From Candidatus Omnitrophota bacterium (GTDB taxonomy: Bacteria; Omnitrophota; Gorgyraeia; Duberdicusellales; 4484-171): a DNA stretch of 64,000 bases. The notes beneath the pieces were generated by a model. That model searched no databases. It was not told where the DNA came from and was given only the letters and a program-made list of their open reading frames with translations. Shown here piece by piece: positions 4,313 to 51,515 of this stretch (positions within the stretch are counted from its first letter, which is position 1; every line of letters begins with the position of its first letter). Made by a program: the position numbers and the translations under genes. The stretch covers positions 24,116-88,115 of the forward strand of contig JAQUWY010000001.1 in NCBI GenBank assembly GCA_028692655.1. The letters run 5' to 3'.

Positions 4313-5257
4313 ATGTCCTATATAGAATATAAGGGGTTTAGCCAGATTATGAAAAGATATCAACTAAGCGATAAGGAAAAGCTGGAAAAAGTATTGCTGG
4401 AAACGGGTATTTCCCGCTCTGAGCTTGCTCGGCGCTTGGAGGTGGATTATAAGACTGTTTATCGCTGGCTGGATAAAGAGGTTAAGCCTCACCCAGCCCA
4501 GGCTCAGGATATTGACCAGCTTTTTAAAGAATATGTTGACTTGAGGGAGATAGTGCTGCAATTGCAAAATAAACTAAAAAGCCCCATGCATATCTTAAAA
4601 GGCAATCAGGTTATCCGGGAAAAATTTCTTTTAGAGATGACTTATCACTCTAACGCCATTGAGGGAAGCCGGATGACCGTAAAAGAGACCCAGAGGGCTT
4701 TTGACGGCAAACAGGTACGGGGCAAGGAGATGTTTGAAGTATTAGAGGTAATAAACCATAAAAATGCACTACAGTTTTTATTAGAAAATATCCGGTCAGG
4801 CTTTAAAATTGATAGCAATTATATCTTTCAATTGCACAGAACAGTAATGTATAATTTTAATAATAAATTGCCCGGAAAATACAGAACCGGCCATGTCAAC
4901 TTGCTGAATACTGAAAAAGCGCTTCCATCCGCCCAGGAAGTTCCTTTGAGGATGGGTAAGTTAATCAAGAATATCAACAATTACGGTAAGGATGCGATAA
5001 GTAAGATTGCCCGCGACCATTATGAATTTGAAGCCATTCATCCTTTTTTTGACGGAAACGGCAGAGTAGGCAGGCTGATAATGATAACCCAGCTTTTAAT
5101 TAAAGGGTTTGCGCCGGCAATTGTCCAGGTTGAGGATAGGTATAAATATTATATGGCTTTGAGCAAGGCTGATTTTGGTAATTTTGAAAATATGGTGCAA
5201 GTGGTTTGTGATAGTATTGTGAAAGGCTATAGGTTGTTAACGGGCAGCATTAAATAG
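4313..5257 (+). CDS. Fic family protein (Fic/Doc AMPylation fold) with N-terminal HTH-like region
   Basis: Canonical Fic motif HPFFDGNGRVGR at residues ~240-251. sigma70-like promoter ttgcaa-17-tacaat at 4259-4287. Alternative start at 4349 has the better SD (aagggg). Confidence 0.8.
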   Translation: MSYIEYKGFSQIMKRYQLSDKEKLEKVLLETGISRSELARRLEVDYKTVYRWLDKEVKPHPAQAQDIDQLFKEYVDLREIVLQLQNKLKSPMHILKGNQVIREKFLLEMTYHSNAIEGSRMTVKETQRAFDGKQVRGKEMFEVLEVINHKNALQFLLENIRSGFKIDSNYIFQLHRTVMYNFNNKLPGKYRTGHVNLLNTEKALPSAQEVPLRMGKLIKNINNYGKDAISKIARDHYEFEAIHPFFDGNGRVGRLIMITQLLIKGFAPAIVQVEDRYKYYMALSKADFGNFENMVQVVCDSIVKGYRLLTGSIK

Positions 5258-5465
5258 GGACAGCGACCATTTTCTTAGAAATTCTAAGGTCTCTATTAAA
5301 TCTCTGCGCAATTATTGTTTTTTCTGCGTAACGAATCTTTATTTTGTTTTGTGTTTCTGTTAAGTAAACGGCTTAAGGAATGAGGCTTTAACGAAACAGA
5401 TTGACATATACGAAAAAGCTAATATAATGGATTTGTGTCCAAAATTTTAGAAAGTTGAGGAACCT

Positions 5466-6002
5466 ATGCTAAAAGAGGTATTTTATAGTACGAGTGCCCA
5501 AAAAGTCTTATGTTTCCTTTTGGCTAATCCTGAAAAGAGATTTTACGATAGGGAAGTCTCAAGGCTTACGAAAATAGGTCGAGCAGCCGGTAATTATTCG
5601 TTGCGTACTTTGATAGCGACAGGCATTGTTAAAAGGGAAAAAAGAGGCAGGATGTATTTTTACCATGTGAGCCTCGATGATCCAATTATAAGGCAGTTAA
5701 AAATAACTCAGAATCTCATCAACATTAAGCCATTAGCTGACAAATTAAGAGATATTTCTCTGAAGATAGTTCTTTATGGAAGCTCCGCAGGCGGGACTAA
5801 TCACGCAGAAAGCGATATAGATCTGTTTGTCCTTACCCGGGATGTTAAGAAGGTCAAGGATATCGTTTATAAGAGCTCTCTTAAGCAAAAGCTTCAGCAC
5901 GTAGTTACAACTCCACAGGACTTGATTAAACTAAAGAAAGATAATCCCGTATTCTATAAGGAAGTTTCCAGCGGGATAGTTCTCCACGAGGAGAAAAGAT
6001 GA
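5466..6002 (+). CDS. minimal nucleotidyltransferase (MNT) with N-terminal winged-helix, antitoxin-type
   Basis: NTase signature LYGSSAGG...ESDIDLFVL (GS...DxD). Stop overlaps the start of the downstream HEPN ORF (ATGA). Confidence 0.75.
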   Translation: MLKEVFYSTSAQKVLCFLLANPEKRFYDREVSRLTKIGRAAGNYSLRTLIATGIVKREKRGRMYFYHVSLDDPIIRQLKITQNLINIKPLADKLRDISLKIVLYGSSAGGTNHAESDIDLFVLTRDVKKVKDIVYKSSLKQKLQHVVTTPQDLIKLKKDNPVFYKEVSSGIVLHEEKR

Positions 6003-6430
6003 GCATTGAGTTCCAAAAGGCCATAGAGAAGAAACGGATATTACACTTTGCGCCAGGGAAAAATCAGGTTAAGAAAGAGCTTCTGGAGGCAGAAAACGAC
6101 TTATCCGAGGCGTTTAATAGGTTTGAGAGTGAAAAATACAAATACGCTACTATTACCGGCTACTATTCGATGTTTCATTCTGCCAGGGCCCTTATTTACT
6201 CAAAGGGATATCGTGAGAAAAGTCATTATTATCTGCTGGTTGCTTTAAACAGCCTTTTTGTAAACGCGGGGATCTTGTCTGAGGAGATAACCTCAGAATT
6301 TCATGATGCTATGGTTTTACGCGAGGATGCCGATTATCACGGCAATTTTACTAAAGAAGGCGCGGAAGCAGTGCTCAAAACAGCAAAGGAATTTTTGGCT
6401 ACTGCTAAGACTGTCTTAAAAACCAAATAA
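5999..6430 (+). CDS. HEPN domain protein (toxin-type partner of the MNT)
   Basis: 143 aa. R-x4-H HEPN motif in LREDADYHG. Translationally coupled to the upstream NTase, the classic HEPN/MNT arrangement. Confidence 0.7.
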   Translation: MSIEFQKAIEKKRILHFAPGKNQVKKELLEAENDLSEAFNRFESEKYKYATITGYYSMFHSARALIYSKGYREKSHYYLLVALNSLFVNAGILSEEITSEFHDAMVLREDADYHGNFTKEGAEAVLKTAKEFLATAKTVLKTK

Positions 6431-6601: not shown

Positions 6602-6928
6602 ATGGAAGAAAAAAAATTCACTGAGGTAGAAATTAAGGAAGGTGCGCCTTTTGCGGCATTGTCTTATGTGTTTTTTTTGTGGATACTGACTTTTATTTTC
6701 AAAAAAGACAATGCCTTTGCTTTATATCATGCCCGCCAGGGGATAGTGATATTTATAGGAGATGTAATCTGTTTGACATTTATGTTTATACCGATTATAG
6801 GCGTTTTGTTTGGGCTGCTGGCATTAATTTTAGCGGTAGTCCGTGTGTATGGAATTCTACTCTCACTTACCGGCAAGAGCGACAAAATTTATGTAATTAG
6901 TGATTTGGCAGAAAAATTAGTTGTATGA
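6602..6928 (+). CDS. small integral membrane protein (DUF4870-like)
   Basis: 108 aa, two or three hydrophobic helices. Motif ALSYVFF...ALYHARQG typical of DUF4870-type proteins. SD aaggaggg upstream. Confidence 0.5.
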   Translation: MEEKKFTEVEIKEGAPFAALSYVFFLWILTFIFKKDNAFALYHARQGIVIFIGDVICLTFMFIPIIGVLFGLLALILAVVRVYGILLSLTGKSDKIYVISDLAEKLVV

Positions 6929-6985
6929 GGCTGAGAAACCAAAAAACGAAAAAACAGAAAAACAAGAAAACGAAAAGCATAAAGC

Positions 6986-7369: not shown

Positions 7370-7493
7370 ATTTTATTTATGTTTTTCCTGTTTTTAAAGC
7401 TTTTAGTTTCTTAGTTTTTATGTTTTTGGGTTTTTCAGTTTTTATGTCGTTATATCAAAAAAGTACAATTCAACGAAGGAGAAGAGGTTAATT

Positions 7494-22371: not shown

Positions 22372-22815
22372 TAGTCGATAGTCCATAGTCCATAGATGAT
22401 AGGCTGTACAGGTTAAGGTTAAGGTTGAGGTTGAGAAAGACAGAAAAACCGAAAAACCAAAGAATCGAAAAACGGAAGAACTAAAAACTGAAAGACCAAA
22501 AAACCGAAGAACATAAAAACTAAAAGACTGAAAAACATAAAGAATAGGGAAGTTAAGACCTTGTCTACCGGCAGGCAGGCGCTAACCGAAAACCGAAAGA
22601 ATATTTCTTTAGTAGAAATACGATAGAAATATATGGAAATACATAGAAATAAATTGTTTTGAATTTTATTCATTTGAATTTGTTTAGGGATTAGAATTTC
22701 GGATTTAGTATTTGGTTGGTTAGTATTATTGGAATTTTTGATGTTCTGGCGCTCTGGTGACTAGTGTACTGGTGTTCTTAAAATATTTATTTAACGCGTA
22801 AGCATTCTGCGAATA

Positions 22816-30129: not shown

Positions 30130-30797
30130 CTTTGGTTTTATAACAAGCCGCATTCTTTAGATAACAATATAATGCTTCTGTTCCCGCCGGCCACAGTCCA
30201 CAGTCCACAGTCGATAGTCCACGGTCCACAGACTATAGGATATCCAGGATGAGGTTAAGGTTGAGAAAAACTAAAAAACCAAAAGACAAAAAAACAGAAA
30301 ACTAAAGAACTAAAAACAGAAAAACTGAAAGACCAAAAAACCGAAGAACATAAAAACTAAAAGATTGAAAAACATAAAGAATAGGGAAGTTAAGACCTTG
30401 CCTACCGGCAGGCAGGCGCTAACCGAAAAACGAAAGAACATTTCTTTAGCGGAAATACGGTAGAGATATATGGAAACAAATAGAAATAGATTGTTTGAAA
30501 AAATTCTTCGGGTCACAGGTCGCAAGCCACAGGTATCAGGTAACAGGTTATTTAAAATAACCAATAACCAAGCAACAAGAAACAAATAAATTACAATATT
30601 CAATAACCAAACAGAATGAAAAATCCAAAATCCAAATACTACCAAATCCCAAACAAATTCAAAATCCCAAATCCCAATTTTGGATTTGGTAATTGGGATT
30701 TATTTGGTAGTATTGGCATTATTGGAATTTGGGATTTTTAGCATTTTCGCTCTAACAACTTTGTTATTGAAGATAATGCGTAAGCATTCTGCGAATA

Positions 30798-36304: not shown

Positions 36305-36886
36305 ATGACTGCTGAGGAAATTCAAAAACTCAACCAGGAAATTCATTCTTGTCAGAAATGTCCATTGGGTGCAACCCGCACAAACGCGGTTCCCGGACAA
36401 GGAAACCTGAACGCTAAGGTTATGTTTATCGGAGAAGCCCCCGGTGCCACAGAAGATGCTCAAGGCATACCTTTTTGTGGTAAGGCCGGAGGAGTCCTTG
36501 ATGAATTGCTGGCGATTGCCGGGTTAAAGAGGGAGGAGATATTTATCGGCAATATTTTAAAATGCCGTCCGCCTAATAACCGCAACCCTCAAGAAATTGA
36601 AATAAAAACCTGCACTCCTTATCTTGATAGGCAAATTGAGCTTATTAAGCCGTCTGTTTTATGCTGTCTTGGGAATTTCTCAACCGGCTATATCATGAAG
36701 AAGTTTTCTCTTGGAGCAAAAGTGCAGGGGATAACCAAAATCCACGGAAAAATCTTCCTCAGTGATGTAGCTTACGGAAAGATAAAGATAATGCCTTTGT
36801 TTCATCCGGCAGTAGTAACTTATGATATGAGTAAGAAGAGCGTCCTCGCCGAAGACTTCCGTCTGTTGAAGAATATACCGAAGTAG
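36305..36886 (+). CDS. uracil-DNA glycosylase, family 4
   Basis: CQKCPL Fe-S Cys. GEAPGATED motif A. FHPAVV motif B. Confidence 0.85.
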   Translation: MTAEEIQKLNQEIHSCQKCPLGATRTNAVPGQGNLNAKVMFIGEAPGATEDAQGIPFCGKAGGVLDELLAIAGLKREEIFIGNILKCRPPNNRNPQEIEIKTCTPYLDRQIELIKPSVLCCLGNFSTGYIMKKFSLGAKVQGITKIHGKIFLSDVAYGKIKIMPLFHPAVVTYDMSKKSVLAEDFRLLKNIPK

Positions 36887-37500: not shown

Positions 37501-37805
37501 CTCCCCGGGTAGGGCTCGAACCTACGACCTATTGGTTACGATCTGACTCACATTACTGTGAGAGTCGGACTATCCCTTTACCATGACTGAACAACTTACC
37601 CCTTATTTTATTCGGGATAAAACTTCGCTTCGTTCAGTTTTAGGTAGCGAGTGTCTAGTCTCTGCACCTTCCCTTTTGGGGCTTGGCTCAGGATTGCCCT
37701 TCGCTTGAAGGGTTTCCCTGAATTTACTCGCTGTTTCAATCTCAATTTCTTGAGAAAGCTGCTAACCTTAACAGCCAACCGCTCTACCAATTGAGCTACC
37801 GGGGA
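37501..37805 (-). tRNA. tRNA-Asn (anticodon GUU) interrupted by a group I intron in the anticodon loop
   Basis: Minus-strand exons. 5' exon (37805..37771): TCCCCGG-TA-GCTC-AATTGGTA-GAGC-G-GTTGG-CTGT. 3' exon (37538..37501): TAA-CCAAT-AGGTC-GTAGG-TTCGAGC-CCTAC-CCGGGGA-G. Spliced product is a 73-nt cloverleaf with anticodon loop CUGUUAA. Confidence 0.7.
37539..37770 (-). ncRNA. group I self-splicing intron (cyanobacterial/plastid tRNA-intron-like), 232 nt
   Basis: Intron begins after exon U. Ends in omega-G (...GAGUCAGAUCG). Core AAAUUCAGGGAAACCCUUCAAGCGAAGGGCAAUCCUGAGCCAAGCC plus P7-like GCAGAGACUAGACACUCGC strongly resemble the tRNA-Leu(UAA)-type group I intron core (GGGCAAUCCUGAGCCAA). Confidence 0.7.
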
Positions 37806-38040
37806 ATAAATTATCTAAGAACTTTCTTCCTTGACCAGACTTGAGAAATTTCTCTCTTTGCTTGGCCTCTTTTATATTAGAGAATTCTTCGTAATGCAAT
37901 AAATCAAATGGACGATTCAACCTTGTCCAGCGTGTATTTCCCGAGTTATGTTCTTTTAAGCGAATCCTCACATTCTTTGATGTGTAGCCTACGTATCTTT
38001 TACCATTATGTTTGCTTTTTAATACATAAATAAATGGCAT
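37768..38040 (-). CDS. GIY-YIG nuclease domain protein (YhbQ/UPF0213-like)
   Basis: FIYVLKSKHNGKRYVGYTSKNVRIRLKEHNSG matches the GIY...YIG...R...E...N core. Same strand as the intron-containing tRNA and directly 5' of it. The ORF's last ~38 nt overlap the tRNA 5' exon, so the true C-terminus is uncertain. Confidence 0.55.
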   Translation of the reverse strand: MPFIYVLKSKHNGKRYVGYTSKNVRIRLKEHNSGNTRWTRLNRPFDLLHYEEFSNIKEAKQREKFLKSGQGRKFLDNLFPGSSIGRAVGC

Positions 38041-38323
38041 AAGCGCTGCCTATTTAGAGCTTCCGCCAGAGGCGGATCAGCCTATGGCTGAACCGGGGAA
38101 TTCAATGAAACCGTGATTTTTAAGTATCTAGTAAAAATCGCTTGGTTGAATTAATTCCGACTGCTATCGGGAAAACTTGCTTAAAAGAGCACTAATCTGT
38201 GTAATCTTTTTCGAATCGGTGTAATCGAATATCTCATTAAGACTGCTAATTATAGCGTATTTGATAAAAAGCGTCAAGATTTTGATTTTTGTGGCCTAAA
38301 CCTGAGGAAAAGCTCTAGGAAAA

Positions 38324-38488
38324 CAGGAGAAAATTTACAAGAGAGAGTACAAAAATATCTCCTTGTAAATATTTAAAGAAAGTACTATAATTCCTTTTGT
38401 TACGGTTAAACGGATATCTATGCATTGGCAATATACCCAAATTATTTAAGTAAATCAAAGCGCTAGGAACACCTAGCGCTTTTTTTTG
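38324..38488 (+). repeat. promoter-leader-terminator module, copy A (candidate small RNA or attenuated leader)
   Basis: 126 nt identical to 41537-41662. Contains a perfect sigma70 promoter ttgtaa-17-tataat. Ends in hairpin gcgctagg...cctagcgc plus a T8 tract. Lies upstream of lipoprotein gene 38551. Confidence 0.6.
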
Positions 38489-40456: not shown

Positions 40457-41530
40457 AAAGGGACGGAGTTAACTTAATAACTTATGGACATAGTTAATAC
40501 TTTCTGTAAAATGATTATATGCCAAGAAACAAACGATTAAACGTTATTGGCGGTGTATATCATGTATTTACTCGGGGAATAGAGCGTAAAGAGATATTTA
40601 AAGATTCAACCGACCGTGAAGAATTCTTATCCCGCCTTGCTGATACGCTAGATAAAACAAAATCAACCTGTTATGCCTGGGCATTGATGCCTAATCATGT
40701 TCATATTATGCTTCGTCCTGGCAAGAGAACCTTAACTGATATAGCCCGAAGAATATTCACCGGCTATGCTGTATATTTCAACATCAGACATAAACGTAGA
40801 GGGTATCTTTACCAGAACCGATATAAATCAATTCTTTGCCAAGAGGACATATATTTTGAAGAACTTATAAGATATATCCACTTAAACCCTTTAAAAGCTA
40901 AAATAGTATCAACAATCAGCCAATTAGATAAATACCCTTGGACTGGTCATTTTACAATAATGAGTAGTAAAAATTGTCCTTGGCAGAATATAGATGAAGT
41001 ATTGCTTCGCTTTTCGAAGAAAAAGGGAAAAGCGGTAGCTGCCTACAGAGATTTTATAAAAGAAGGCGTAGGCAAAAAGTCTATGGTAGACTTTTTAGGT
41101 GGCGGATTGATAAGAAGTGCCGGCGGCTGGAGCGAACTTGCTGCCATGAGGCGTAAAAAAGATTATTGGCGGGGAGACGAGAGAATACTAGGGGGCGATT
41201 CATTTGTTAATCAGGTATTGAATGAATACGAGGAGAAAATGGATCAAAAAGATAAGCTAAGGAGAGCGGGCTGGGATTTAACTAAGGTAATCCATAAGGT
41301 ATGTTGCGAATTGGCCATAAGTGAGGAAGACATCTACAAAAAAGGCAGAAACAATATATACTCAGAAGCCAAAGCCTTGATTTGTTACCTTGCCAATAAA
41401 AAGCTCGGTATCAGCGGAGCCCAAATAGCCAAAAGGCTTAGAATATCTCAACCGGCGGTAGCCAAGTATATGATTAAAGAGATTGTGAGGGAGAGGGGAA
41501 ATAAGTTATTAAGTTAACTCCGTCCCCTCC
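40457..41530 (+). mobile_element. IS element with ~25-bp terminal inverted repeats carrying an IS200-like (HUH/Y1) transposase gene
   Basis: Left end aagggacggagttaacttaataactta (40457-40483). Right end taagttattaagttaactccgtccc (41503-41527), a perfect inverted copy. Single ORF between them. Confidence 0.6.
40519..41517 (+). CDS. IS200-like / REP-associated tyrosine (HUH) transposase with C-terminal DnaA-domain-IV-like HTH
   Basis: GVYHVFTRG. HUH motif NHVHIML. YLYQNRY catalytic Tyr region. C-terminal ...AKALICYLANKKLGISGAQIAKRLRISQPAV resembles a DnaA C-terminal HTH. Confidence 0.7.
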   Translation: MPRNKRLNVIGGVYHVFTRGIERKEIFKDSTDREEFLSRLADTLDKTKSTCYAWALMPNHVHIMLRPGKRTLTDIARRIFTGYAVYFNIRHKRRGYLYQNRYKSILCQEDIYFEELIRYIHLNPLKAKIVSTISQLDKYPWTGHFTIMSSKNCPWQNIDEVLLRFSKKKGKAVAAYRDFIKEGVGKKSMVDFLGGGLIRSAGGWSELAAMRRKKDYWRGDERILGGDSFVNQVLNEYEEKMDQKDKLRRAGWDLTKVIHKVCCELAISEEDIYKKGRNNIYSEAKALICYLANKKLGISGAQIAKRLRISQPAVAKYMIKEIVRERGNKLLS

Positions 41531-41536
41531 TCCTCA

Positions 41537-41699
41537 CAGGAGAAAATTTACAAGAGAGAGTACAAAAATATCTCCTTGTAAATATTTAAAGAAAGTACTA
41601 TAATTCCTTTTGTTACGGTTAAACGGATATCTATGCATTGGCAATATACCCAAATTATTTAAAGAATTTAAAGCGCTAGGTGCCCCTAGCGCTTTTTTT
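41537..41699 (+). repeat. promoter-leader-terminator module, copy B
   Basis: Same 126-nt sequence as copy A, then a variant terminator hairpin gcgctagg-tgcc-cctagcgc plus a T tract. Lies upstream of lipoprotein operon 41750. Confidence 0.6.
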
Positions 41700-43138: not shown

Positions 43139-43184
43139 ATGTTTTTACAACCGATAGAATTCAGGAGGGCAGAGTACTTATTTC

Positions 43185-43212
43185 GAATTAAGTAATACGT
43201 CCCCTCCTCCAA
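43185..43212 (+). repeat. possible solo IS-end remnant
   Basis: gaattaagtaatacgtcccctcctcc shares cgtcccctcctcc plus a taagt(a/t)a prefix with the right end of the IS at 41503-41536. Confidence 0.3.
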
Positions 43213-43392: not shown

Positions 43393-44154
43393 GTGTTAAA
43401 ATGGCCGAAGGTGGCTTTTAGTGAGGTTTATGGATGGAGAGATATATATATGAATTACGGTATTCTATCGCACAGTGAAGCGAGGGCGTTTTTCAAAAAA
43501 GAAATAAATTCACAGAAATTGTGTAATGAATGTCGATCGGCAAGGTCAGAATTTCGTTTAAAGGATCAAAAATATAATTCTTCTTACAGCAATCTCCTTC
43601 CTGGCTTTTCAAGTTCTAAAGTAAAGATACCAATAGATGTATTAGTTATTGCTGAGGCCCATGGCGGCGGTCGAGAAAAGTGCTTTCGTAAACAGCTATC
43701 TCTGGAAAAAGAAGTTACTGAGATAGGTAATTATTATCGCAGTGACTCTATTGAGAAATTCCATCAATATGAAATGAGAAAATTGTTTAAACGATTAGAT
43801 CAAAAGGGAAAGAGCTGGATTTTTGCTGATTTAATACGTTGTTTTGTTTGGCAAGGAATAGACATAGCCGCTAATTTGGACGGCAGAATTAATGTTCAAA
43901 AAGCTATAGGCTACTGCCGGAAATATCTAGACAAAGAGATTGCTTTTTTGAAGCCTAAAAAAATAATTTGTTTAGGAAATAAAGTCGCCAGAGATTATTT
44001 TGGAATAGACGAAAGAATGATACACGGTATGGAGTATAAATACAATAGCAAAAATACTGAGTCCGTCGTTATCCGGTCGTACTTCCCAAGCAGAAATACA
44101 GCTGATATATGGGTGACGGTTGGAGGGTGGAAAGAAATTCTCGCTAAAATCTAA
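43393..44154 (+). CDS. hypothetical protein, possibly UDG-superfamily-like
   Basis: VLVIAEAHGGGRE resembles UDG motif A (GEAPG) and SYFPSRN resembles motif B (HPSP). CNECRS cysteine pair. Start uncertain: GTG at 43393 or ATG at 43450. Confidence 0.35.
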   Translation: MLKWPKVAFSEVYGWRDIYMNYGILSHSEARAFFKKEINSQKLCNECRSARSEFRLKDQKYNSSYSNLLPGFSSSKVKIPIDVLVIAEAHGGGREKCFRKQLSLEKEVTEIGNYYRSDSIEKFHQYEMRKLFKRLDQKGKSWIFADLIRCFVWQGIDIAANLDGRINVQKAIGYCRKYLDKEIAFLKPKKIICLGNKVARDYFGIDERMIHGMEYKYNSKNTESVVIRSYFPSRNTADIWVTVGGWKEILAKI

Positions 44155-44240
44155 TTCCTTGACAGAATTTCCGATCAGAGCTATATTAAAAGTAACAATT
44201 AGGCAAAAGTCCCGAGTTAGAGGATTAAATCCCGGACTTA

Positions 44241-44288
44241 AAAAAAGTAAAACCTTCACTGGAAACGGTGAGGGATTTTTTATTTTAT
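44241..44288 (+). terminator. intrinsic terminator, copy 1 of a 44-bp duplicated sequence
   Basis: aaaaaagtaaaaccttcactggaaacggtgagggattttttatttta. Repeated at 44893-44942. Confidence 0.55.
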
Positions 44289-44904
44289 GGAAATGAAACA
44301 AAAATATTGGTTATTTAATGTTTTGTTTTTATTGTTTTTTGCTAACGCAATAGCATCGGAAGTTAATCCTTCGGCAAAGCCTAAGATTTATGTTAGTACG
44401 CATAGAGGGATAGATTATTATCATATGAAATATACACTGACTCCCGATAATGTAGAATTAACCTTGCCTACTTATCATAAATATGGACCTAGCGAATATT
44501 TCTTTGAATATGGAAACTTTCAACTATTTATTCCCAAGGAAAAATTTCCCATCTCAGCGCCTAATTGCAACACGCATATTATTTTACGTATGCCTATGAC
44601 AATGGGCGATGTTTTTGCGAAAAGGTATTACACTTCTGAACAAGAGCGCTATATTGCAGAGAAAAGAGCTGTTTACGACAAAATTAAACAAATAAAGGAA
44701 TCAGGCAGGGGCGAGTTAGAGGTAGTGGTTGAGTTAAACCCGTATGTGAAAGTAAAGCAAGAGGAGCCGTTAGAGGTTGAATTAGAGTGGTGCAATGTTT
44801 TTTTCAGAGATGCTTATGGTCAATATATTGATTATGTGGGTCCGTTAAAATGGACAATTCCGCGGATAAATAAAAAGTTGTTTAAACGTCTTGAGAAAAA
44901 GTAA
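44287..44904 (+). CDS. hypothetical secreted protein
   Basis: 205 aa with signal peptide ending ANAIA|SE. Bounded on both sides by the duplicated terminator sequence. Confidence 0.4.
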   Translation: MEMKQKYWLFNVLFLLFFANAIASEVNPSAKPKIYVSTHRGIDYYHMKYTLTPDNVELTLPTYHKYGPSEYFFEYGNFQLFIPKEKFPISAPNCNTHIILRMPMTMGDVFAKRYYTSEQERYIAEKRAVYDKIKQIKESGRGELEVVVELNPYVKVKQEEPLEVELEWCNVFFRDAYGQYIDYVGPLKWTIPRINKKLFKRLEKK

Positions 44905-44942
44905 AACCTTCACTGGAAATGGTGAGGGATTTTTATTTTAAG
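44893..44942 (+). terminator. intrinsic terminator, copy 2 of the 44-bp duplicated sequence
   Basis: aaaaagtaaaaccttcactggaaatggtgagggatttttatttta. Its stop codon taa is embedded in the repeat. Confidence 0.55.
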
Positions 44943-44965
44943 AATACATAAAATAAAAGGGATAT

Positions 44966-45166
44966 ATGAAAATCAAAAAATGCAGAAAATGTGGAGGGGA
45001 TAATTTTATCATTCAGGAAACTATTCTTCACGAAGCTGCACTTTGCTTGGAAGATAAAGAATTGACTGTTTACAAGGAACGCACTGGAGGCATAGAAAAA
45101 ATAATATGCAAAAATTGTAATACAGATTACTCTGAGGAAGATTTTTCAAGAATAAACTTTCGGTAA
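44966..45166 (+). CDS. small zinc-ribbon protein
   Basis: 66 aa. CRKCGG...CKNCN. Confidence 0.3.
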   Translation: MKIKKCRKCGGDNFIIQETILHEAALCLEDKELTVYKERTGGIEKIICKNCNTDYSEEDFSRINFR

Positions 45167-45423
45167 TAAAGTTATTATAAAAAATAAGTACGTTTGTTTA
45201 CAGCAGGGTTTACACATATTCAGTTGCTAAAAAAGCGTGGTTGCCGGAGGAAAGATTTTATATATTGACACTGGATTTCAGTACATTAAGATAATCATAA
45301 TGCTTTGGGCAAGGAAGAGGAATCTATGCGTAAAAATAAGCAAAACCTTTGCAAAACAAGCGAAGGTTTTTGTATTTTTATAGGGGTAGTGAAAAAGTGA
45401 AAAATTTGGTATAATAACAACAT

Positions 45424-46713
45424 ATGAAAACGATGCATAAAATTATCATTGGTGATTCGCGAAAGATGAAGGAGCTTTCTGATGAAAGCATCCATATAGT
45501 TGTAACTTCTCCGCCATATTGGCAACTGAAAGATTACGGAGTTAAAGATCAAATAGGATTTAATGATAGTTATGAGAGCTACATCAATAACCTTAATTTA
45601 GTCTGGAAAGAATGCCATAGGGTTTTACATAAAGGTTGTCGTTTATGCGTCAACATTGGAGATCAATTCGCACGTTCAGTTTACTATGGAAGATATAAGA
45701 TTATTCCTATCCGAACGGAGATTATTAGGTTTTGCGAAACGATCGGGTTTGATTATATGGGCGCTATAATCTGGCAAAAAGTAACTACCTGCAATACTAC
45801 AGGTGGTGCGACAATAATGGGTTCATTTCCTTACCCCCGGAATGGGATTTTAAAGTTAGATTACGAATTTATTCTGTTATTTAAAAAACCAGGCATTTCT
45901 CCACGACCATTTAGAGAGATTAGAGAACGCTCAAAGATGACAACTGAGGAATGGAATAAGTATTTTGCTGGACATTGGCAATTTACCGGAGAAAGACAGA
46001 ATAAGCATTTGGCAATGTTTCCGGAGGAATTACCTAAACGTCTTTTAAGAATGTTTACTTTTGTCGGCGATACGGTATTAGACCCTTTCCTAGGGAGCGG
46101 TACGACTTCTTTGGCAGCAAGGAATTTAGAAAGAAACTCTGTCGGATACGAGATAAATAAAGATTTTTTGTCTGTTATAAAATCAAAACTCGGAATGAAG
46201 CAGCACAATTTTTTTCATACGCATAATTTCGAAGTTATACAACAAGAAAAAATAGCGAATAATTTAACCGAGGAAATTAATAAATTGCCTTATGTTTTTA
46301 AGGATCCAATAAAATTTGATAAAAAAGTTGATCCTAGAAAGTTGCAGTTTGGTTCAAGAATCGATAAAAATAGTGGGGAGCGACACCAATCCTTTGTTGT
46401 AAAGGAAGTTATTAGCCCCGAATTACTAAAACTCAACAATGGTCTTACTATACGACTTCTAGGCATCAAGCAGAACCTTGACAAAAATGGAAAAGCTACT
46501 CAGTTTTTGAGCGATAAGGTTAAGGGAACAAGAGTTTTTCTTAAATACGATAAAGCAAAACATGATGAAAAAAATAACCTGCTTTGTTACCTTTATTTAC
46601 AAAATAAGACTTTTGTGAATGCACATCTAGTAAAAAATAACCTAGTGGACGTTGATGCAGCAACGGATTATAGATATAAGACAAAATTTTTATCTTTGGC
46701 AGGAGCTAAATAA
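45424..46713 (+). CDS. DNA methyltransferase, beta-class amino-MTase (N4-C or N6-A)
   Basis: Motif IV SPPYW precedes motif I DPFLGSGTT, the beta-class permutation. About 150-aa C-terminal extension. Confidence 0.8.
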   Translation: MKTMHKIIIGDSRKMKELSDESIHIVVTSPPYWQLKDYGVKDQIGFNDSYESYINNLNLVWKECHRVLHKGCRLCVNIGDQFARSVYYGRYKIIPIRTEIIRFCETIGFDYMGAIIWQKVTTCNTTGGATIMGSFPYPRNGILKLDYEFILLFKKPGISPRPFREIRERSKMTTEEWNKYFAGHWQFTGERQNKHLAMFPEELPKRLLRMFTFVGDTVLDPFLGSGTTSLAARNLERNSVGYEINKDFLSVIKSKLGMKQHNFFHTHNFEVIQQEKIANNLTEEINKLPYVFKDPIKFDKKVDPRKLQFGSRIDKNSGERHQSFVVKEVISPELLKLNNGLTIRLLGIKQNLDKNGKATQFLSDKVKGTRVFLKYDKAKHDEKNNLLCYLYLQNKTFVNAHLVKNNLVDVDAATDYRYKTKFLSLAGAK

Positions 46714-47345
46714 TGGCAAAAGAATGGATATTAAATCAGGCAAATATGCGATGGGGGTTAACTAGAAAGAGTAAAGTTGGTCCTGTTGCAGAACTAATAA
46801 GGAAATGTTCACCCAAGACATTAAAAGAATGGGAAGAGTTTTATTTGCATAAAGCTTATTCAAAGCAACACCTTGAACAGCTCGGGAAAATATTGTTCAT
46901 TAAGGTAACTGATATTTGCAAGGCAGAAATAGAAGATATTACCGAAGAAGATTGCATAGGATTTGTATATAATTTGGTAATTAACAGAACCTTTGATGGA
47001 TATCAGTCAGAAATTCAAACAATATATGGCCAACTTGAAAAGATTCTTGGGGTAAAAATTGAATCCGCTCCTGACGAATGGGATAGAGGCTATAACGTTG
47101 ATTATTTCATTCGAATTGATGGTAAACATATCGGTCTTCAAATAAAACCCGCAGGTTATGAGTATATAACGCAAATAATTAATGAGAGAGAGCAGCAGAA
47201 GAAAACTCACGAAAAATTTTCAGCAAAGTATGGAGGTAAAGTGTTCTATATTATTTCAATAACTGAAGGTAAAAATAAGTTAATTCATAATCCCGAAGTA
47301 ATCGAGGAAATAAAAAAAGAGATCGAAAGGCTAAAAAGAGTATAA
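46713..47345 (+). CDS. hypothetical protein, candidate cognate restriction endonuclease
   Basis: Translationally coupled (ATGA) to the MTase. VDYFIRIDGKHIGLQIK could be a PD-(D/E)xK-like core. Assignment by position only. Confidence 0.3.
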   Translation: MAKEWILNQANMRWGLTRKSKVGPVAELIRKCSPKTLKEWEEFYLHKAYSKQHLEQLGKILFIKVTDICKAEIEDITEEDCIGFVYNLVINRTFDGYQSEIQTIYGQLEKILGVKIESAPDEWDRGYNVDYFIRIDGKHIGLQIKPAGYEYITQIINEREQQKKTHEKFSAKYGGKVFYIISITEGKNKLIHNPEVIEEIKKEIERLKRV

Positions 47346-47707
47346 AGATCAGTGATAAAAAGGGGAATTTCTACCCCGAAATTCTTCGGGCTGGGTGGGT
47401 ATTTAGTGTTCCACTCACTTGCAGGTTCGGAGTCCCGAACCAGAATAGATTCGGTTCGGGGTAAACTCCGGTAGGCCCGAGCAGAGCGAAGCCTTCTTTT
47501 AGGGGTTGAGACTGCAACAAGCAACCACGATGTATATGCACCCCACCAGAGACGCCAACAGGCTACCACGATGAGGCTGGCCCTTGGCCGTTTCTTAAAC
47601 AACAAAGATGAACTCCAGCCATTTTTCACATTTCGAACTATTCTGCCGTCCATTTCTAAGAGGATTTTCTCCCTTCACGAATTTGCCAATAATGATATAC
47701 TTAAAAT

Positions 47708-48247
47708 ATGCAAAACATAAAAGCCGGTGACATTATTCTTTTTAAGCCCGGGGGAGATTTGCTTTCAAGGATTATTGCCTGGGGCACAAAAAGCGCCTAT
47801 TCTCATGTTGCTGTTTGTGTATCGGCAGAAATGAACCTGGCCATTGAGGCAAACACAAGAGGCGGAGTGAGAGCAATTGACTTACGCAAAATTAAACGCA
47901 GGATAGATATTTACCGCATCAAAAACGAGCATCAATTCCGGCTGGATGGAGTAATTTCTTTTTTAGTTGAGCAGTTAAATAACAAGTATGACTTTTTAGG
48001 CGTAATATACTTAGCAATTTTAAAGAGTTTAGCTATTGTTTTACGCAGGCCCCTTAAAAATGCCGCCAATAGATGGCAGAAAGGCAAAGACTATTTTTGC
48101 TCAGAGCTCTGCTATGAAGCTTTTTTAAAGGGCGGCGATTTAGATATCGTACCGCAAAGCGATAAAGCGGATGTAACTTCTCCCGGTGATATTGCCAAAA
48201 GCCCGATTGTCGAATTAGTGGAGCAAAAAAGAACTTTCTACAATTAG
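47708..48247 (+). CDS. permuted papain-fold hydrolase-like protein (YiiX/DUF830-like)
   Basis: GDIILF near the N-terminus. SHVAVCV. FCSELCYEAF. Order and spacing are typical of permuted NlpC/P60-like amidases. Confidence 0.4.
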   Translation: MQNIKAGDIILFKPGGDLLSRIIAWGTKSAYSHVAVCVSAEMNLAIEANTRGGVRAIDLRKIKRRIDIYRIKNEHQFRLDGVISFLVEQLNNKYDFLGVIYLAILKSLAIVLRRPLKNAANRWQKGKDYFCSELCYEAFLKGGDLDIVPQSDKADVTSPGDIAKSPIVELVEQKRTFYN

Positions 48248-48490
48248 GCTGGGATTTGCCTACTGCTTAATCATTTACGGTCATTTTTATATTAAAAAAG
48301 TTATTTATAATGTAAGATATTGCAGAGGGTTTTCTTTTTCGTGATATAATATAAAAATGTAATTCCGGCCGCTTATATAGCGGGTTAAATCTTGCCCTGT
48401 TTTGCGCCGTAACTTTTAACCCTAAGCGGTTCGGACATAATTCACCCTTGACATTAAAGATATCAAGGGTTCATTAAAAGGAGGTTAGAT

Positions 48491-48745
48491 ATGCAAGAGC
48501 AAGAGATTGGAGTAGTTGACCATTTTTTTGGCAAGATTTCTGTTGGGATGATCAACCTAAGCGGCGAGCTTAAAGTAGGAGAGACCATTCGCATTAAAGG
48601 AAAGCAGGCGGATTTTTCTCAAAAGGTCGAATCGATGCGGATAGGGTTTGATGATGTAACTGAGGCTAAAGAAGGGGACAAGGTAGGCATAAAAGTTTCC
48701 GAAGCTGTCCATGCTAACGATAAAGTATATAAAGTGATTGCTTAA
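48491..48745 (+). CDS. small EF-Tu domain-2-like beta-barrel protein
   Basis: 84 aa. GKISVGMINLSGELKVGETIRIKG resembles the translation-factor beta-barrel domain 2. SD aaaggagg. Confidence 0.4.
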   Translation: MQEQEIGVVDHFFGKISVGMINLSGELKVGETIRIKGKQADFSQKVESMRIGFDDVTEAKEGDKVGIKVSEAVHANDKVYKVIA

Positions 48746-48793
48746 ATCCCGGCGATAAATATTATTTTCCCAAGAAACTTTTAAAATAAGTCT

Positions 48794-49951
48794 ATGCAAT
48801 TCAGTGAGCTTAATTTACCGCAATCTATATTAAAATCTCTGCAAAGAATGGGGTTTAAGGAGCTTACTCCTATACAGGAAGCAACTTACCCGATTATTTT
48901 GACCGGGCGTGATATCTGCGCATTGGCTGAGACCGGTTCAGGTAAGACTAGCGCTTGCGCGATTCCGCTTATTCAGATAGTTGATTCTAATATTAAAAGT
49001 ATCCAAGGGCTGGTGATTGTGCCTACACGCGAGCTCTGCATTCAATATGTCGATGAAATTCATAAGATTGCGCTTAAAACTCAGGTTGCAGTTTTTGCCG
49101 CTTACGGCGGTTTTGATAAGTCAATACAAGTAACCAAGCTTAAACATGGGGTGCATATCCTGGTGGCTACTCCCGGACGGCTTATAGACCTGATTTATGA
49201 CGGAGTAGTTGATTTAACCGGTATAAAATGCGTGATATTGGATGAAGCTGACCGGCTGCTCGACGATGGTTTTTTAGAAGGTATTGAGCTTATTCTTTCC
49301 TGTATAAGGCAGGAACACCAGATACTTATGTTTTCAGCCACGATGAACGAGGAGACGAAAAAACTCGCCAATGACTGCCTTAAAAACCCCAAGCATATAT
49401 CGTTGATTAACAAGCAGGCTACACCCAAGAGTATTGAGCATTATTTTGCTTATGTTAAACGGGAAACTAAAGAAAAAGCCCTCTTTGATTATTTGCGCCG
49501 CGAAAGAGTTAACCAGGCGATTATTTTTTGCAATGCCCGGAGCATGGTGGATACCCTGCACAGGATTGTGCGCAAGCATTTTCGTGATGTAGAGTATATT
49601 CATGCCGGCCTTGAACAGGGCAAGCGTTCTTCAATAGTGCGCCGATTCAGGGCTAAAAAGATTCGCTATTTGATTGCAACAGATGTTGCCGGCCGCGGCC
49701 TTGATTTTTCCCATATTTCTCATATTGTTAACTGGAATTTTCCCCGAGGCGAGCAATATACGCATCGTACCGGACGAGTCGGGCGTATGGGCAGAAAAGG
49801 CAGGGCATTATCTTTGATAACCCATCATGACATTCCTGCGGTGCGGGAAATGCTAAGCGCTACTAAAATTAAACCTCATTGGTTCGGGATAGATCCATTG
49901 AGCCAGTTATCAGCGCCGCATCGTTCCAGCCGTCGGCCGCCGAGAGGTTAA
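48794..49951 (+). CDS. DEAD-box ATP-dependent RNA helicase
   Basis: Q motif region. AETGSGKT. DEAD. SAT. HRTGRVGR motifs in order. Confidence 0.9.
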   Translation: MQFSELNLPQSILKSLQRMGFKELTPIQEATYPIILTGRDICALAETGSGKTSACAIPLIQIVDSNIKSIQGLVIVPTRELCIQYVDEIHKIALKTQVAVFAAYGGFDKSIQVTKLKHGVHILVATPGRLIDLIYDGVVDLTGIKCVILDEADRLLDDGFLEGIELILSCIRQEHQILMFSATMNEETKKLANDCLKNPKHISLINKQATPKSIEHYFAYVKRETKEKALFDYLRRERVNQAIIFCNARSMVDTLHRIVRKHFRDVEYIHAGLEQGKRSSIVRRFRAKKIRYLIATDVAGRGLDFSHISHIVNWNFPRGEQYTHRTGRVGRMGRKGRALSLITHHDIPAVREMLSATKIKPHWFGIDPLSQLSAPHRSSRRPPRG

Positions 49952-50147
49952 CAAGTTAAGCAATTTATGCGCTTATCAGAAATGGATGAGCCTGAGGAGA
50001 TGGAGGGTTATTTAGAATTTTTGCTTAAGGCGTGCAGAGAATTGGTTGTTACTTTTTTGTGTTAATAAAAATGTTAAAAGTTGTCTTTTTTACCATTTGT
50101 GGTAGCGTAAAAGAGAGAAGGATTTAAAATAAAAAAAGGAGGCGGGA

Positions 50148-50663
50148 ATGAGGCAAAAGATGATATTGGCGGTTTTATTGTCACTGGGTTTTATTTTTGT
50201 TACTTCATCAGTTAACGCCGGCCAGGCGGAAGGATTAGAGGCAAATAAAGAAATTGCCGTAAAGTATGTAGAGGAAATTTTAGAAGAAGGCAATATTGAT
50301 TTTATTGTTGATAATTATCTTGCCCCTGAGATTGAAATTGAGTTTCCTGAAAATTTCATAATTCCGGCATTAGGAACTAACCAGGTTAAAGGGAAGGAGG
50401 CCCATCGTAGGGCAGCTAAGGCTTGGAAGAGCGAAACGGCGCATAACGTTGATATCTCTGAGGTCATTGCCGAGGATGATAAAGTGGTAGTATTGGTTTA
50501 TGTTGATCGAGCATTCAAAATAATAGAAGGTAAGGAAAGATTATTCAATGACCATCCGATGGTATTTATTTTTAAGTTTAAGGATGGCCAGATTATTAAT
50601 GCTAAGATAATTTTTGACGTGTTGGATGAAATTGAACAGATGAAAGCAAAAAAATATAATTAG
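50148..50663 (+). CDS. secreted SnoaL/ketosteroid-isomerase-like fold protein
   Basis: Signal peptide ending VNA|GQ. About 150-aa mature domain of NTF2-like composition. Weak evidence. Confidence 0.35.
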   Translation: MRQKMILAVLLSLGFIFVTSSVNAGQAEGLEANKEIAVKYVEEILEEGNIDFIVDNYLAPEIEIEFPENFIIPALGTNQVKGKEAHRRAAKAWKSETAHNVDISEVIAEDDKVVVLVYVDRAFKIIEGKERLFNDHPMVFIFKFKDGQIINAKIIFDVLDEIEQMKAKKYN

Positions 50664-50738
50664 CTAATAGAGTTAATAAGCAATAAAATATTTATTTTTA
50701 GCTGACAAGAATATCTCTATGCTTAGAGAGGGGTATAA

Positions 50739-51515
50739 GTGATTTTACGTAAGGTTTCTATATTATTTTTCTCGATAGTTTTTCTGTCAGTTATTTTTTT
50801 CATTAAATACGCCAGTGCTGAGGGCAAATGGCAAATTACCGGCCAAAGGCATTTTGGTACGCGTGTTGTCGATGACAGCGATTTTGCGAAGGTAAAAAGT
50901 ATACCTGCTTGGTGCGGAGTGGCTCGGATAGTAAACTGCGGCGGCAGGCAGGCCTTAGAATACGCCTGTTTAGAGGATGCTCTCTGGACTCCTTATACAG
51001 AAAGCAGCCTTATCGGCCCGATAGGGTTTGATTTTCAGGGTTATAACGAGTTAGTGGTTTATATTTATTCTACCGCGGCAAATTCTCCGGGCCGTTTCCT
51101 AAGGCTTAAAGGAATAGACTTAGATAAAACAATGATCGGCAAGGTAGGAGAATTCACCGGGAAAATAACTCCCTGGGTTAAAGGCAAAAGCCCGGGAGTG
51201 ATGGAGGTGGAAGAATACCACTGGCTGCCTCCAGTCTGCATAAAAGGCATTGTGAGAGAAGAAAACAGATGCCAGGGGGAGCGGAAAGAATCCACAGCTC
51301 TTGTTTTTGATGTGAAAGGAAGAAAAGGTACGGTTACATTTTTTATCAGCCAGAATTCACCGGTTTATTCAGAGCTTAGACAGCATCTTGGAGAAGAGAT
51401 TAGCTTAGCTGCCTATGTTTGCAATAAATGGCTAAGCGAGCATATCTTCCCCGAGATGAGTTGGACATGTTTCCTTGGTATGCCGGCGATGAGTGTGCAG
51501 TGGCTTTGCGATTAG
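50739..51515 (+). CDS. hypothetical secreted protein
   Basis: 258 aa, N-terminal TM/signal, several Cys. Confidence 0.3.
   Translation: MILRKVSILFFSIVFLSVIFFIKYASAEGKWQITGQRHFGTRVVDDSDFAKVKSIPAWCGVARIVNCGGRQALEYACLEDALWTPYTESSLIGPIGFDFQGYNELVVYIYSTAANSPGRFLRLKGIDLDKTMIGKVGEFTGKITPWVKGKSPGVMEVEEYHWLPPVCIKGIVREENRCQGERKESTALVFDVKGRKGTVTFFISQNSPVYSELRQHLGEEISLAAYVCNKWLSEHIFPEMSWTCFLGMPAMSVQWLCD

Follow-up and report, generated by a model that had tools for sequence, protein, structure and literature searches.

Gene content of the region

Between a lipoprotein operon and a DEAD-box helicase gene on contig JAQUWY010000001.1 of a Candidatus Omnitrophota assembly (GCA_028692655.1) lies a short stretch of mixed gene content that includes a candidate restriction–modification (R-M) system. 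The window analysed here is the whole 64,000-nucleotide (nt) stretch of DNA around it, with an average GC content of ~39%, and 43 genome and metagenome loci (L-numbered below) were fetched for comparison. A first-pass annotation had set positions 43393–48250 apart as one small island; the open reading frames (ORFs), terminator repeat, GC-rich block and hairpin that it listed were all found where it had placed them. The genes lie on the forward strand and encode, in order, a divergent uracil-DNA glycosylase (UDG) superfamily protein, a secreted protein of 205 residues (sec205), a small Zn-ribbon-type protein, a DNA methyltransferase (MTase) with a restriction endonuclease (REase), and a C92 permuted-papain protein, followed by an EF-Tu-domain-2-like protein. 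Related promoter–leader units, here called E units, precede sec205 and the R-M genes, and a GC-rich non-coding spacer follows the REase gene. We consider it probable that this stretch is a mosaic variable region of the Omnitrophota chromosome, made up of at least four independently inherited pieces, and not one island delimited by an insertion sequence (IS). Its clearest module is an ordinary, horizontally spread R-M pair of the MjaI type, which probably cuts CTAG.

An MjaI-family Type II restriction–modification module

The R-M module spans 45403–47359 and comprises, as one transferable unit, an MTase of 429 residues (45424–46713) and an REase of 210 residues (46713–47345). The second protein had been left without a family assignment and proposed as a plausible REase partner. 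It matches the Pfam family RE_MjaI (PF09568) over profile positions 1–163 of 164, with an E-value of 5.6e-45 and 153.6 bits against a cutoff of 22.7, and the PADLOC profile REase_II with an E-value of 7.5e-27. Together with the PADLOC Type II assignment of the MTase, this bears out the proposed R-M pairing. The MTase matches Pfam N6_N4_Mtase (PF01555; E 3.9e-43) and has the motif order of the beta class, with SPPYW at about residue 29 followed by DPFLGSGTT at about residue 219. Among solved structures, 2zie is the best match (E 2e-55), with further matches to the N4-cytosine MTases 8s9m and 1boo. The two genes are adjacent and co-oriented, the REase ATG overlapping the MTase stop codon (TAATG), and an extended −10-like sequence, TGGTATAAT, was read by eye ahead of the MTase gene at 45405–13.

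About 150 residues of the MTase lie C-terminal to the core that aligns with 2zie. This extension gave a weak Pfam SNase match (PF00565; E 1.4e-4) and no match in a sequence search of the PDB. Manual alignment to staphylococcal nuclease suggests that its Ca-binding and catalytic residues are replaced, and we infer that the domain is probably a non-catalytic, DNA-binding OB-fold and not a nuclease. The MTase also matches the PADLOC MTase_II profile PDLC03259 (423 positions) end to end (E 4.8e-197), so that the extension belongs to the regular architecture of a known Type II MTase family. Homologues of the MTase are 422–430 residues long and were paired with the same REase in every context examined (L014, L015, L016, L042–L044).

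The module resembles MjaI, MthZI and BfaI-type systems in the match of its REase to the whole RE_MjaI profile, in its beta-class MTase with SPPY as motif IV, and in the adjacency, orientation and overlap of the two genes. It differs in the additional SNase-like domain of the MTase and in its host, which is an Omnitrophota bacterium and not a methanogen or Bacteroides. M.MjaI, M.MthZI and M.BfaI are beta-class N4-methylcytosine (m4C) enzymes specific for CTAG (PMC5867850; PMC11033074). From family membership and the SPPY motif, the MTase is predicted to produce m4C at CTAG, and from family membership the REase is predicted to cut CTAG. In this scheme the MTase would protect host DNA by m4C modification of CTAG, and the REase would attack incoming DNA at unmethylated CTAG sites.

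Horizontal spread of the R-M module

A search with the REase returned 4781 homologues, whose database entries carry the label 'MjaI family restriction endonuclease'. The best 120 are 74–96% identical to it, and the named ones among these come from Omnitrophota, Gribaldobacteria, Staskawiczbacteria, Minisyncoccales, Aenigmatarchaeota, Thermoplasmatota, Methanoliparum, Ignavibacteria, Bacilli, Zixibacteria and Hydrogenedentota. Identity is 75–88% in bacteria of the candidate phyla radiation (CPR) and in archaea; the host DEAD-box helicase is 61–64% identical to that of Syntrophales and 78–81% identical within Omnitrophota.

Breakpoints at the nucleotide level define the same unit. The module is 84.7% identical over 45403–47359 to positions 6189–8144 of L014, an Omnitrophota metagenome-assembled genome (MAG) with a 96% identical REase, and homology stops 14 nt past the REase stop codon. 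Matches to L015/L016 and L042–L044, at 72–74% nucleotide identity, cover the two ORFs only (45424 to ~47325). The neighbours of the MTase–REase pair are unrelated in L014, L015/L016 and L042–L044, and the earlier view of the R-M genes as accessory and mobile is thereby upheld. Because the REase is 75–96% identical across bacterial and archaeal phyla (Omnitrophota, CPR, DPANN, Thermoplasmatota, Ignavibacteria, Bacilli, Zixibacteria), the module probably moves horizontally, and its boundaries suggest that it does so as a two-gene unit. DNA and protein searches of plasmid and phage collections gave no match to the module; these sets are culture-biased and say nothing about the vector.

Three further observations concern these loci. 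The REase is more conserved than the MTase (96% versus 86% amino acid identity in L014, 88% versus 68% in L015), although the REase is usually expected to be the faster of the two to diverge. In L014 (4259–6190), a terminator hairpin again precedes the R-M module, and a group II intron is inserted directly behind this hairpin, with a reverse transcriptase ORF at 4684–6075 and Rfam D1–D4 and D5–6 matches at 4393–4564 and 6087–6164; the window has the intron-less site. Downstream of the REase gene in L015 (5640–5880), a tandem repeat, AAATTGAAACAGAAATAAAG, is broken by a run of N, a probable assembly gap.

Probably inherited flanking units of sec205

E1 is a conserved promoter–leader unit of 132 nt (44156–44287) that fills the interval between the UDG-like gene and sec205, ending at the sec205 ATG. 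It contains a promoter (TTGACA-17-TATATT, 44159–44187) scoring 11/12, a first hairpin (~44207–44239), an A-rich linker and a terminator, copy 1 (44242–44285). sec205 itself (44287–44904) belongs to a very small family and encodes a protein whose N-terminus reads by eye as a signal peptide and whose core is weakly OB-fold-like. Its TAA stop codon (44902–44904) lies within the native terminator of the gene, copy 2 (44896–44939). The two terminator copies differ by one substitution and one indel in the T-run, both score as intrinsic terminators in a terminator scan, and no comparable match arose in 100 shuffles. E3 (45265–45404) is a degenerate third E copy directly upstream of the R-M module, with a promoter-like TTGACA-16-TAAGAT and a terminator-like hairpin (45342–45370), and it aligns with both terminator copies. 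No E-type sequence was found elsewhere in the window.

The terminator pair that brackets sec205 had been taken as the signature of a recent cassette insertion. The duplication is real, with the stop codon inside the second copy as described, and the comparison with marine contigs speaks against its being recent. E1 is 80.5% identical over 133 nt to L019 451–579 and L018 762–890, upstream of a homologous operon. In these marine Tara contigs the order is E unit, a gene here called p209, a sec205 homologue (78% amino acid identity) and a terminator. That last terminator (L019 1835–1877) is the ortholog of copy 2 and has the same AAAAAGTAAAACC stop context. In our alignment of the copies (A4), the window and L019 lineages share an orthologous downstream terminator, with its AAAAAGTAA stop context included. 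Since both the upstream unit carrying copy 1 and the matching downstream terminator are conserved in the marine relative, the pair appears to be an old, homogenised architecture and not a fresh scar.

The same alignment indicates how the copies may have stayed alike. The sequence is GGGATTTTT(T)ATTTTA in each of the two window copies and AGGTTTTTT(T)AGTTTTAGG in each of the three L019 copies; the states derived within each genome are CCTTCACTGGAAA[C/T]GGTGAGGGATTTTT(T)ATTTTA in the window and ...AAGGTTTTTT(T)AGTTTTAGG in L019. Flanking E copies thus seem to co-evolve within each genome, the likely cause being gene conversion or recombination between copies. L019 has its third, partial copy between p209 and sec205, and 20-nt direct repeats bracket p209. 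Because the same short repeats bound the presence or absence of p209 in the marine relative, E repeats would act as junctions for homologous recombination through which small genes are gained or lost. The coincidence of repeats with a gene indel leaves room for a weaker form of the cassette-like idea.

Related sequences also adjoin the R-M module of L014. The 5' part of E1 is 85% identical to L014 8197–8260, just downstream of the L014 REase gene, and E3 is 90% identical over 45329–45377 to L014 4259–4307 and 81% identical over 45333–45404 to L014 8319–8387. The likeness of the copies at the two ends of sec205 could reflect shared regulation in place of recombination, with the E units acting as functional RNA elements, either a short small RNA (sRNA) of ~85–150 nt or a transcription-attenuating leader that controls the gene behind it. 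Consistent with this, the −35 and −10 elements with 17-nt spacing and hairpin 1 are kept in three lineages (the window, L019 and the downstream copy in L014), a terminator stands between promoter and ORF in both the window and L019, and the units fold better than shuffled sequences (z −2.6 for E1 and −2.6 to −7.5 overall). On the other hand, the upstream copy in L014 has no promoter, hairpin 1 of E3 is degenerate, no alternative antiterminator structure is obvious, and the units gave no family in Rfam 15, with sub-threshold noise only. The 3–5 known copies are too few for covariation. A role as RNA is compatible with the architecture proposed above and does not exclude it, and we regard RNA function as the explanation of the likeness as possible, though on the unlikely side.

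The arrangement invites comparison with integron cassette arrays. As in these, the short genes are each trailed by a member of one hairpin-repeat family, and the presence or absence of p209 is bounded by such repeats. attC sites, with their GTTRRRY core and extrahelical bases, are imperfect palindromes of greater length, whereas the repeats here have GC-rich stems of 7–9 bp with T-runs, that is, they are intrinsic terminators. No integrase-type Pfam match was found in nine ORFs scanned over 40.5–48.7 kb. An integron array was rejected on these two grounds, and homologous recombination is more likely than an integron mechanism. Four matches to an E-unit motif in viral contigs were likewise dismissed as chance, none extending past the 16-mer. 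A bolder proposal would make the E units a new element specific to an Omnitrophota lineage, at once regulatory leader or sRNA and recombination junction, through which sec205, p209, the Zn-ribbon gene and the R-M module are gained, lost and homogenised, as a terminator-based, integrase-free analogue of cassette arrays; alternatively or additionally, the GC-rich block would encode a new structured RNA. We rate this proposal as speculative and improbable.

Downstream of terminator copy 2, an ORF of 66 codons (44966–45166) encodes a Zn-ribbon-type protein with two CxxC pairs. Its Pfam matches are weak Zn-ribbon matches only, and 68 representatives were found at E<=1e-3 among 1.84 billion, nearly all of ~65 residues, and mark it as a real small-protein family. 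We also observed that the gene upstream of the sec205 homologue in L025 (1617–2246) resembles by eye L007 9453–9908, with a shared ...YKDW.P....DG.P...DS.LFL..Y.RELEK... pattern. The L007 gene lies immediately upstream of the helicase gene in that Omnitrophota relative, and the resemblance hints at an older linkage of the sec205 neighbourhood with the helicase.

A UDG-fold protein with altered catalytic motifs

The first gene of the region encodes a divergent member of the UDG superfamily. Homologues support the ATG at 43450 as its start (43450–44154; 234 residues), not the GTG at 43393 (253 residues). The Pfam UDG match lies exactly at the cutoff (E 3.6e-5), and the score against TIGR00758 is 27.8, with a cutoff of 125.3. 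The gene had been described as an orphan; its family comprises 37 clusters including its own, at 41–100% identity, so that 36 homologous clusters stand beside it. In the AlphaFold2 model (pLDDT 92.5) the protein is predicted to have the alpha/beta UDG fold of family 4 UDG and UdgX. The best Foldseek match is the family 4 UDG 4zbx (E 1.9e-6, probability 1.00), followed by UdgX entries at ~1e-5, with TM-scores of ~0.5. Four cysteines (C25, C28, C131 and C156) are invariant in 22 sequences, and their layout, an N-terminal CxxC and two later residues, is shared with family 4 UDG and UdgX; we take it to be the family 4 layout of iron–sulphur (Fe-S) ligands. The protein differs from family 4 in motif A, which is AEAHGGGRE in place of GE(A/G)PG, in motif B, where FPSRNTAD replaces HP(A/S) and the His gives way to Phe, and in a helical N-terminal extension of ~40 residues. 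These features suggest that the family is rare, of the Fe-S UDG-fold type with predicted cluster ligands, and altered in its catalytic motifs. The protein may be a glycosylase for a base other than uracil. The genome also encodes a canonical family 4 UDG, which has the GEAPG and HPA motifs, 6.6 kb upstream (36305–36886).

UDG-fold proteins act in defence and occur near defence and mobile genes (PMC11078745; bioRxiv 10.1101/2025.10.29.685425), and the protein could work with the nearby R-M system in a small defence cluster, as an antiphage DNA glycosylase like Brig1/Brig2. Its altered motifs in a genome that already has a canonical family 4 UDG, its position 1.3 kb from the R-M genes in an AT-rich stretch, and the toxin–antitoxin-like genes that adjoin some homologues, whose contexts vary, would fit such a role. 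Nevertheless, two unrelated genes and three terminators separate it from the R-M module, and no conserved link to R-M or any other defence gene was seen in the two other contexts examined. PADLOC gave no match, with a library that predates Brig1, and Brig1 was not among the 50 PDB fold matches listed, from a library whose inclusion of Brig1 was unchecked. A Brig1/Brig2-like role is thus possible but unsupported, and we consider it doubtful.

The C92 module and the GC-rich spacer

The C92 permuted-papain gene (47708–48247; PF05708, E 5.1e-9) and the 84-residue EF-Tu-domain-2-like gene (48491–48745) are contained in one block of homology (47676–48745) that is ~90% identical at the nucleotide level to metagenome contig L027, over 47676–48208 and 48478–48744. 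The C92 protein is 91% identical there. In L027 the C92 gene is again followed by the EF-Tu-domain-2-like gene, with a RumA-like gene upstream and no R-M genes, and the C92 gene thus appears to belong with its EF-Tu-domain-2-like neighbour and separately from the R-M module. Like YaeF/YiiX permuted papain-like amidases (C92, related to NlpC/P60), whose PF05708 profile it matches, it has the permuted order of His (SHV) before Cys (FCSEL) by inspection. It differs from them in scoring far under the YaeF and YiiX equivalog cutoffs and in its tie to the EF-Tu-domain-2-like gene. An exact-protein look-up of the EF-Tu-domain-2-like protein found nothing. In L027 this gene runs straight into a match to window positions 50650–50762 (L027 4345–4471 against window 48745–50762). 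The DEAD-box helicase and SnoaL_2 genes are lacking there at ~90% nucleotide identity, and therefore the 'core' helicase is itself variable at this place.

Between the R-M module and the C92 block, outside both homology blocks (ending at 47359 and starting at 47676), lies an orphan non-coding spacer of 316 nt (47360–47675). Its core (47361–47620; 52–58% GC) is longer than any other run of >=52% GC in the window, and it holds two 25-nt direct repeats (47508–47532 and 47549–47573). The description of this block as GC-rich and non-coding stands: no credible ORF and no Pfam match in any frame were found. Nor was there a match in Rfam 15 for 47346–47707 at E<=10, in blastn searches of plasmids and phages, or in sensitive blastn and tblastx searches of the window and the 43 fetched loci. 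A 122-residue antisense ORF gave no tblastn match in plasmids, and one 18-nt core motif had no exact match in viral contigs.

Being the longest GC-rich stretch of an AT-rich window and non-coding, the block (47360–47620) could be a new structured non-coding RNA gene or a structured 3' untranslated region of the R-M operon. The 136 nt at 47355–47490 fold with z ~−3, GGTTCGG / CCGAACC / GGTTCGG can form mutually exclusive pairings, and a weak terminator-like hairpin lies at 47575–47590. Yet the z value of 47355–47490 is equal on both strands, as palindromic DNA would give; the remainder does not fold significantly, and the block as a whole reaches only −1.5 on the forward and −0.3 on the reverse strand. 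Moreover, the block has no homologue in the collections searched, hence no support from conservation or covariation, and it is absent beside the 96% identical REase of L014 and the 91% identical C92 protein of L027. It could be what is left of a decayed, GC-richer gene, or a scar of recombination, and we judge an RNA gene or a structured 3' untranslated region of the R-M operon unlikely.

Boundaries, composition and synteny

The left boundary of the proposed island had been placed at 43185 as an IS-end-like remnant. The sequence concerned is an imperfect 44-nt palindrome (43164–43207) after the lipoprotein operon. It occurs once in the window at <=3 mismatches, is not followed by a T-run and folds no better than shuffled sequence (z −0.25). 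A search for IS or transposon ends found no right end to match it, and the reading as an IS end is therefore not supported; it is probably an operon-end hairpin. The nearest Y1 transposase-like gene (40519–41517) falls outside the region, between the two copies of a 164-nt repeat of its own. A 17-nt inverted pair (42976–92 / 48275–91) was considered as island ends and rejected: one arm lies in the lipo142 coding sequence, and such a pair is estimated to arise at about chance level in AT-rich DNA.

The expected compositional deviation was present but mild. GC content is ~34.5% against ~39%, and tetranucleotide z is 1.3–1.55 over 43–47 kb, and other parts of the window deviate more. The observed/expected ratio of CTAG is 0.35 over 1–35.5 kb and 0.33 over 46.8–64 kb, compared with 1.43 over 35.5–46.8 kb and 2.0 within the R-M genes; the depletion of GATC (~0.4) is relaxed only over 44–48 kb. 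Since CTAG is undepleted over 35.5–46.8 kb, the atypical stretch extends further left than had been proposed and ends at the R-M module. This signal is not a clean marker of foreign DNA, because the non-depletion also covers native-looking genes and GATC depletion persists over most of the stretch. It could reflect either recent acquisition or weaker constraint on accessory genes. The CTAG counts are compatible with a CTAG-specific R-M system but not diagnostic of one.

Most of the closest relatives of the DEAD-box helicase (78–81% identity) are MAGs labelled Omnitrophota. Protein cluster-mates are entered at NCBI as Candidatus Omnitrophica proteins. In twelve genome loci with a helicase 61–87% identical, no flanking gene on either side was common to the window. 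The relatives at 78–81% thus share no synteny on either side, which makes an empty-site comparison uninformative. The only closer contigs match the window at 100% identity: JAQUSC010000014.1 of MAG GCA_028715335.1, where identical MTase, sec205 and lipoprotein sequences were found, and two Logan contigs with that lipoprotein. Rearrangement is rapid throughout this neighbourhood, which agrees with the abundance of hypervariable loci with R-M genes described for Omnitrophota (bioRxiv 10.64898/2026.06.07.730766).

Other features of the window

A 164-nt direct repeat (38323–38486 / 41536–41699; 96% identical) stands just upstream of two different lipoprotein operons, and a strong bidirectional terminator hairpin closes each copy. 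The copies bracket a 3.2-kb segment with a lipoprotein, a trypsin-like protease and a Y1 (IS200-like, with a DnaA-type helix-turn-helix) transposase-like gene, and the MAG contig breaks exactly at 41536, the start of the second copy. On the reverse strand, a group I intron (37546–37780; Rfam 82.7 bits) is apparently followed by a 90-residue ORF (37768–38040), GIY-YIG-like by inspection; these surroundings suggest an intron-interrupted tRNA gene uncalled by ARAGORN. A-rich repeats with an 8-nt period (such as AAAAACYR) and a 216-nt repeat (88% identical) occur at 22425–22659 and 30255–30496, and also at 6923–6984. They lie ~150 nt upstream of each of two tRNA-Ser genes (22816 and 30798), and a 61-nt repeat covers the upstream flank and 5' end of each tRNA-Ser gene, with an inverted relative at 7382–7452.

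A mosaic region or a single island

Based on these data, we propose that the region was assembled from separate pieces. The first would be the R-M module (45403–47359), a self-contained Type II operon moving as a two-gene unit. The second would be sec205 between two members of the E family, a lineage-specific set of promoter–hairpin–terminator or terminator units, in an arrangement that was presumably inherited; the third, the UDG-like gene, would be a rare Fe-S-type UDG-fold paralogue; and the fourth, the C92 gene, would be part of the adjoining module with the EF-Tu-domain-2-like gene. Because homology breakpoints separate the region into modules, with the R-M module ending at 47359 and the homology of C92 and its neighbour beginning at 47676, one island over 43393–48250 is not supported. 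Hypervariable regions with R-M cargo, mainly of types I and III, are common in Omnitrophota according to a 2026 preprint (bioRxiv 10.64898/2026.06.07.730766).

Several points weigh against this reading or parts of it. CTAG non-depletion reaches left to ~35.5 kb over native-looking genes, among them the canonical UDG and lipoprotein operons. The comparison yielded no relative both close and different enough to provide an empty site, so the order and timing of the insertions stay inferential. Gene conversion between the terminators draws on two lineages only, and the promoter and terminators of the E units are elements predicted from sequence, as is their activity. The CTAG and m4C assignments derive from family membership and the SPPY motif, and M.MjaI, M.MthZI and M.BfaI are shorter, at 303–364 residues (PMC5867850), and have no C-terminal domain.

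The alternative put forward by the first-pass annotation is a single genomic island of 43.1–48.3 kb between the lipoprotein operon and the helicase, its left edge marked by an IS-end remnant and sec205 brought in as a cassette whose insertion duplicated the terminator. The lower GC content and mildly deviant tetranucleotide profile over 43–47 kb, CTAG and GATC both undepleted over 44–48 kb, the near identity of the terminator copies (2 differences in 44 nt) and the loss of synteny of these genes in relatives at 80% identity would all fit it. It is nonetheless very unlikely, for both its left edge and cassette event and its unity: the palindrome is unique and without a partner, the only long inverted pair that spans the region has an arm in lipo142, homology blocks break the region at 45403, 47359 and 47676, L027 links C92 to the EF-Tu-domain-2-like gene without R-M genes, the unit with terminator copy 1 is kept with its operon in marine contigs, and the flanks are equally without synteny in the same relatives, so that synteny loss is not specific to an island.

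The main result is thus a clarification of the locus, in which the REase candidate is identified and the R-M system is given a testable specificity (CTAG, m4C). The supposed island comes apart into ordinary modules, in a phylum for which many hypervariable loci with R-M genes have already been reported. The co-evolution of flanking terminators within a genome, and their position at the limits of gene indels, suggest that terminator repeats serve as substrates for recombination. Where a genome has a CTAG R-M system, the local degree of CTAG depletion could show how long a segment has been resident. Finally, MjaI-family REases are unusually conserved (at least 75%) across bacterial and archaeal candidate phyla, and this conservation points to what may be intense recent exchange among uncultivated groundwater and sediment lineages.

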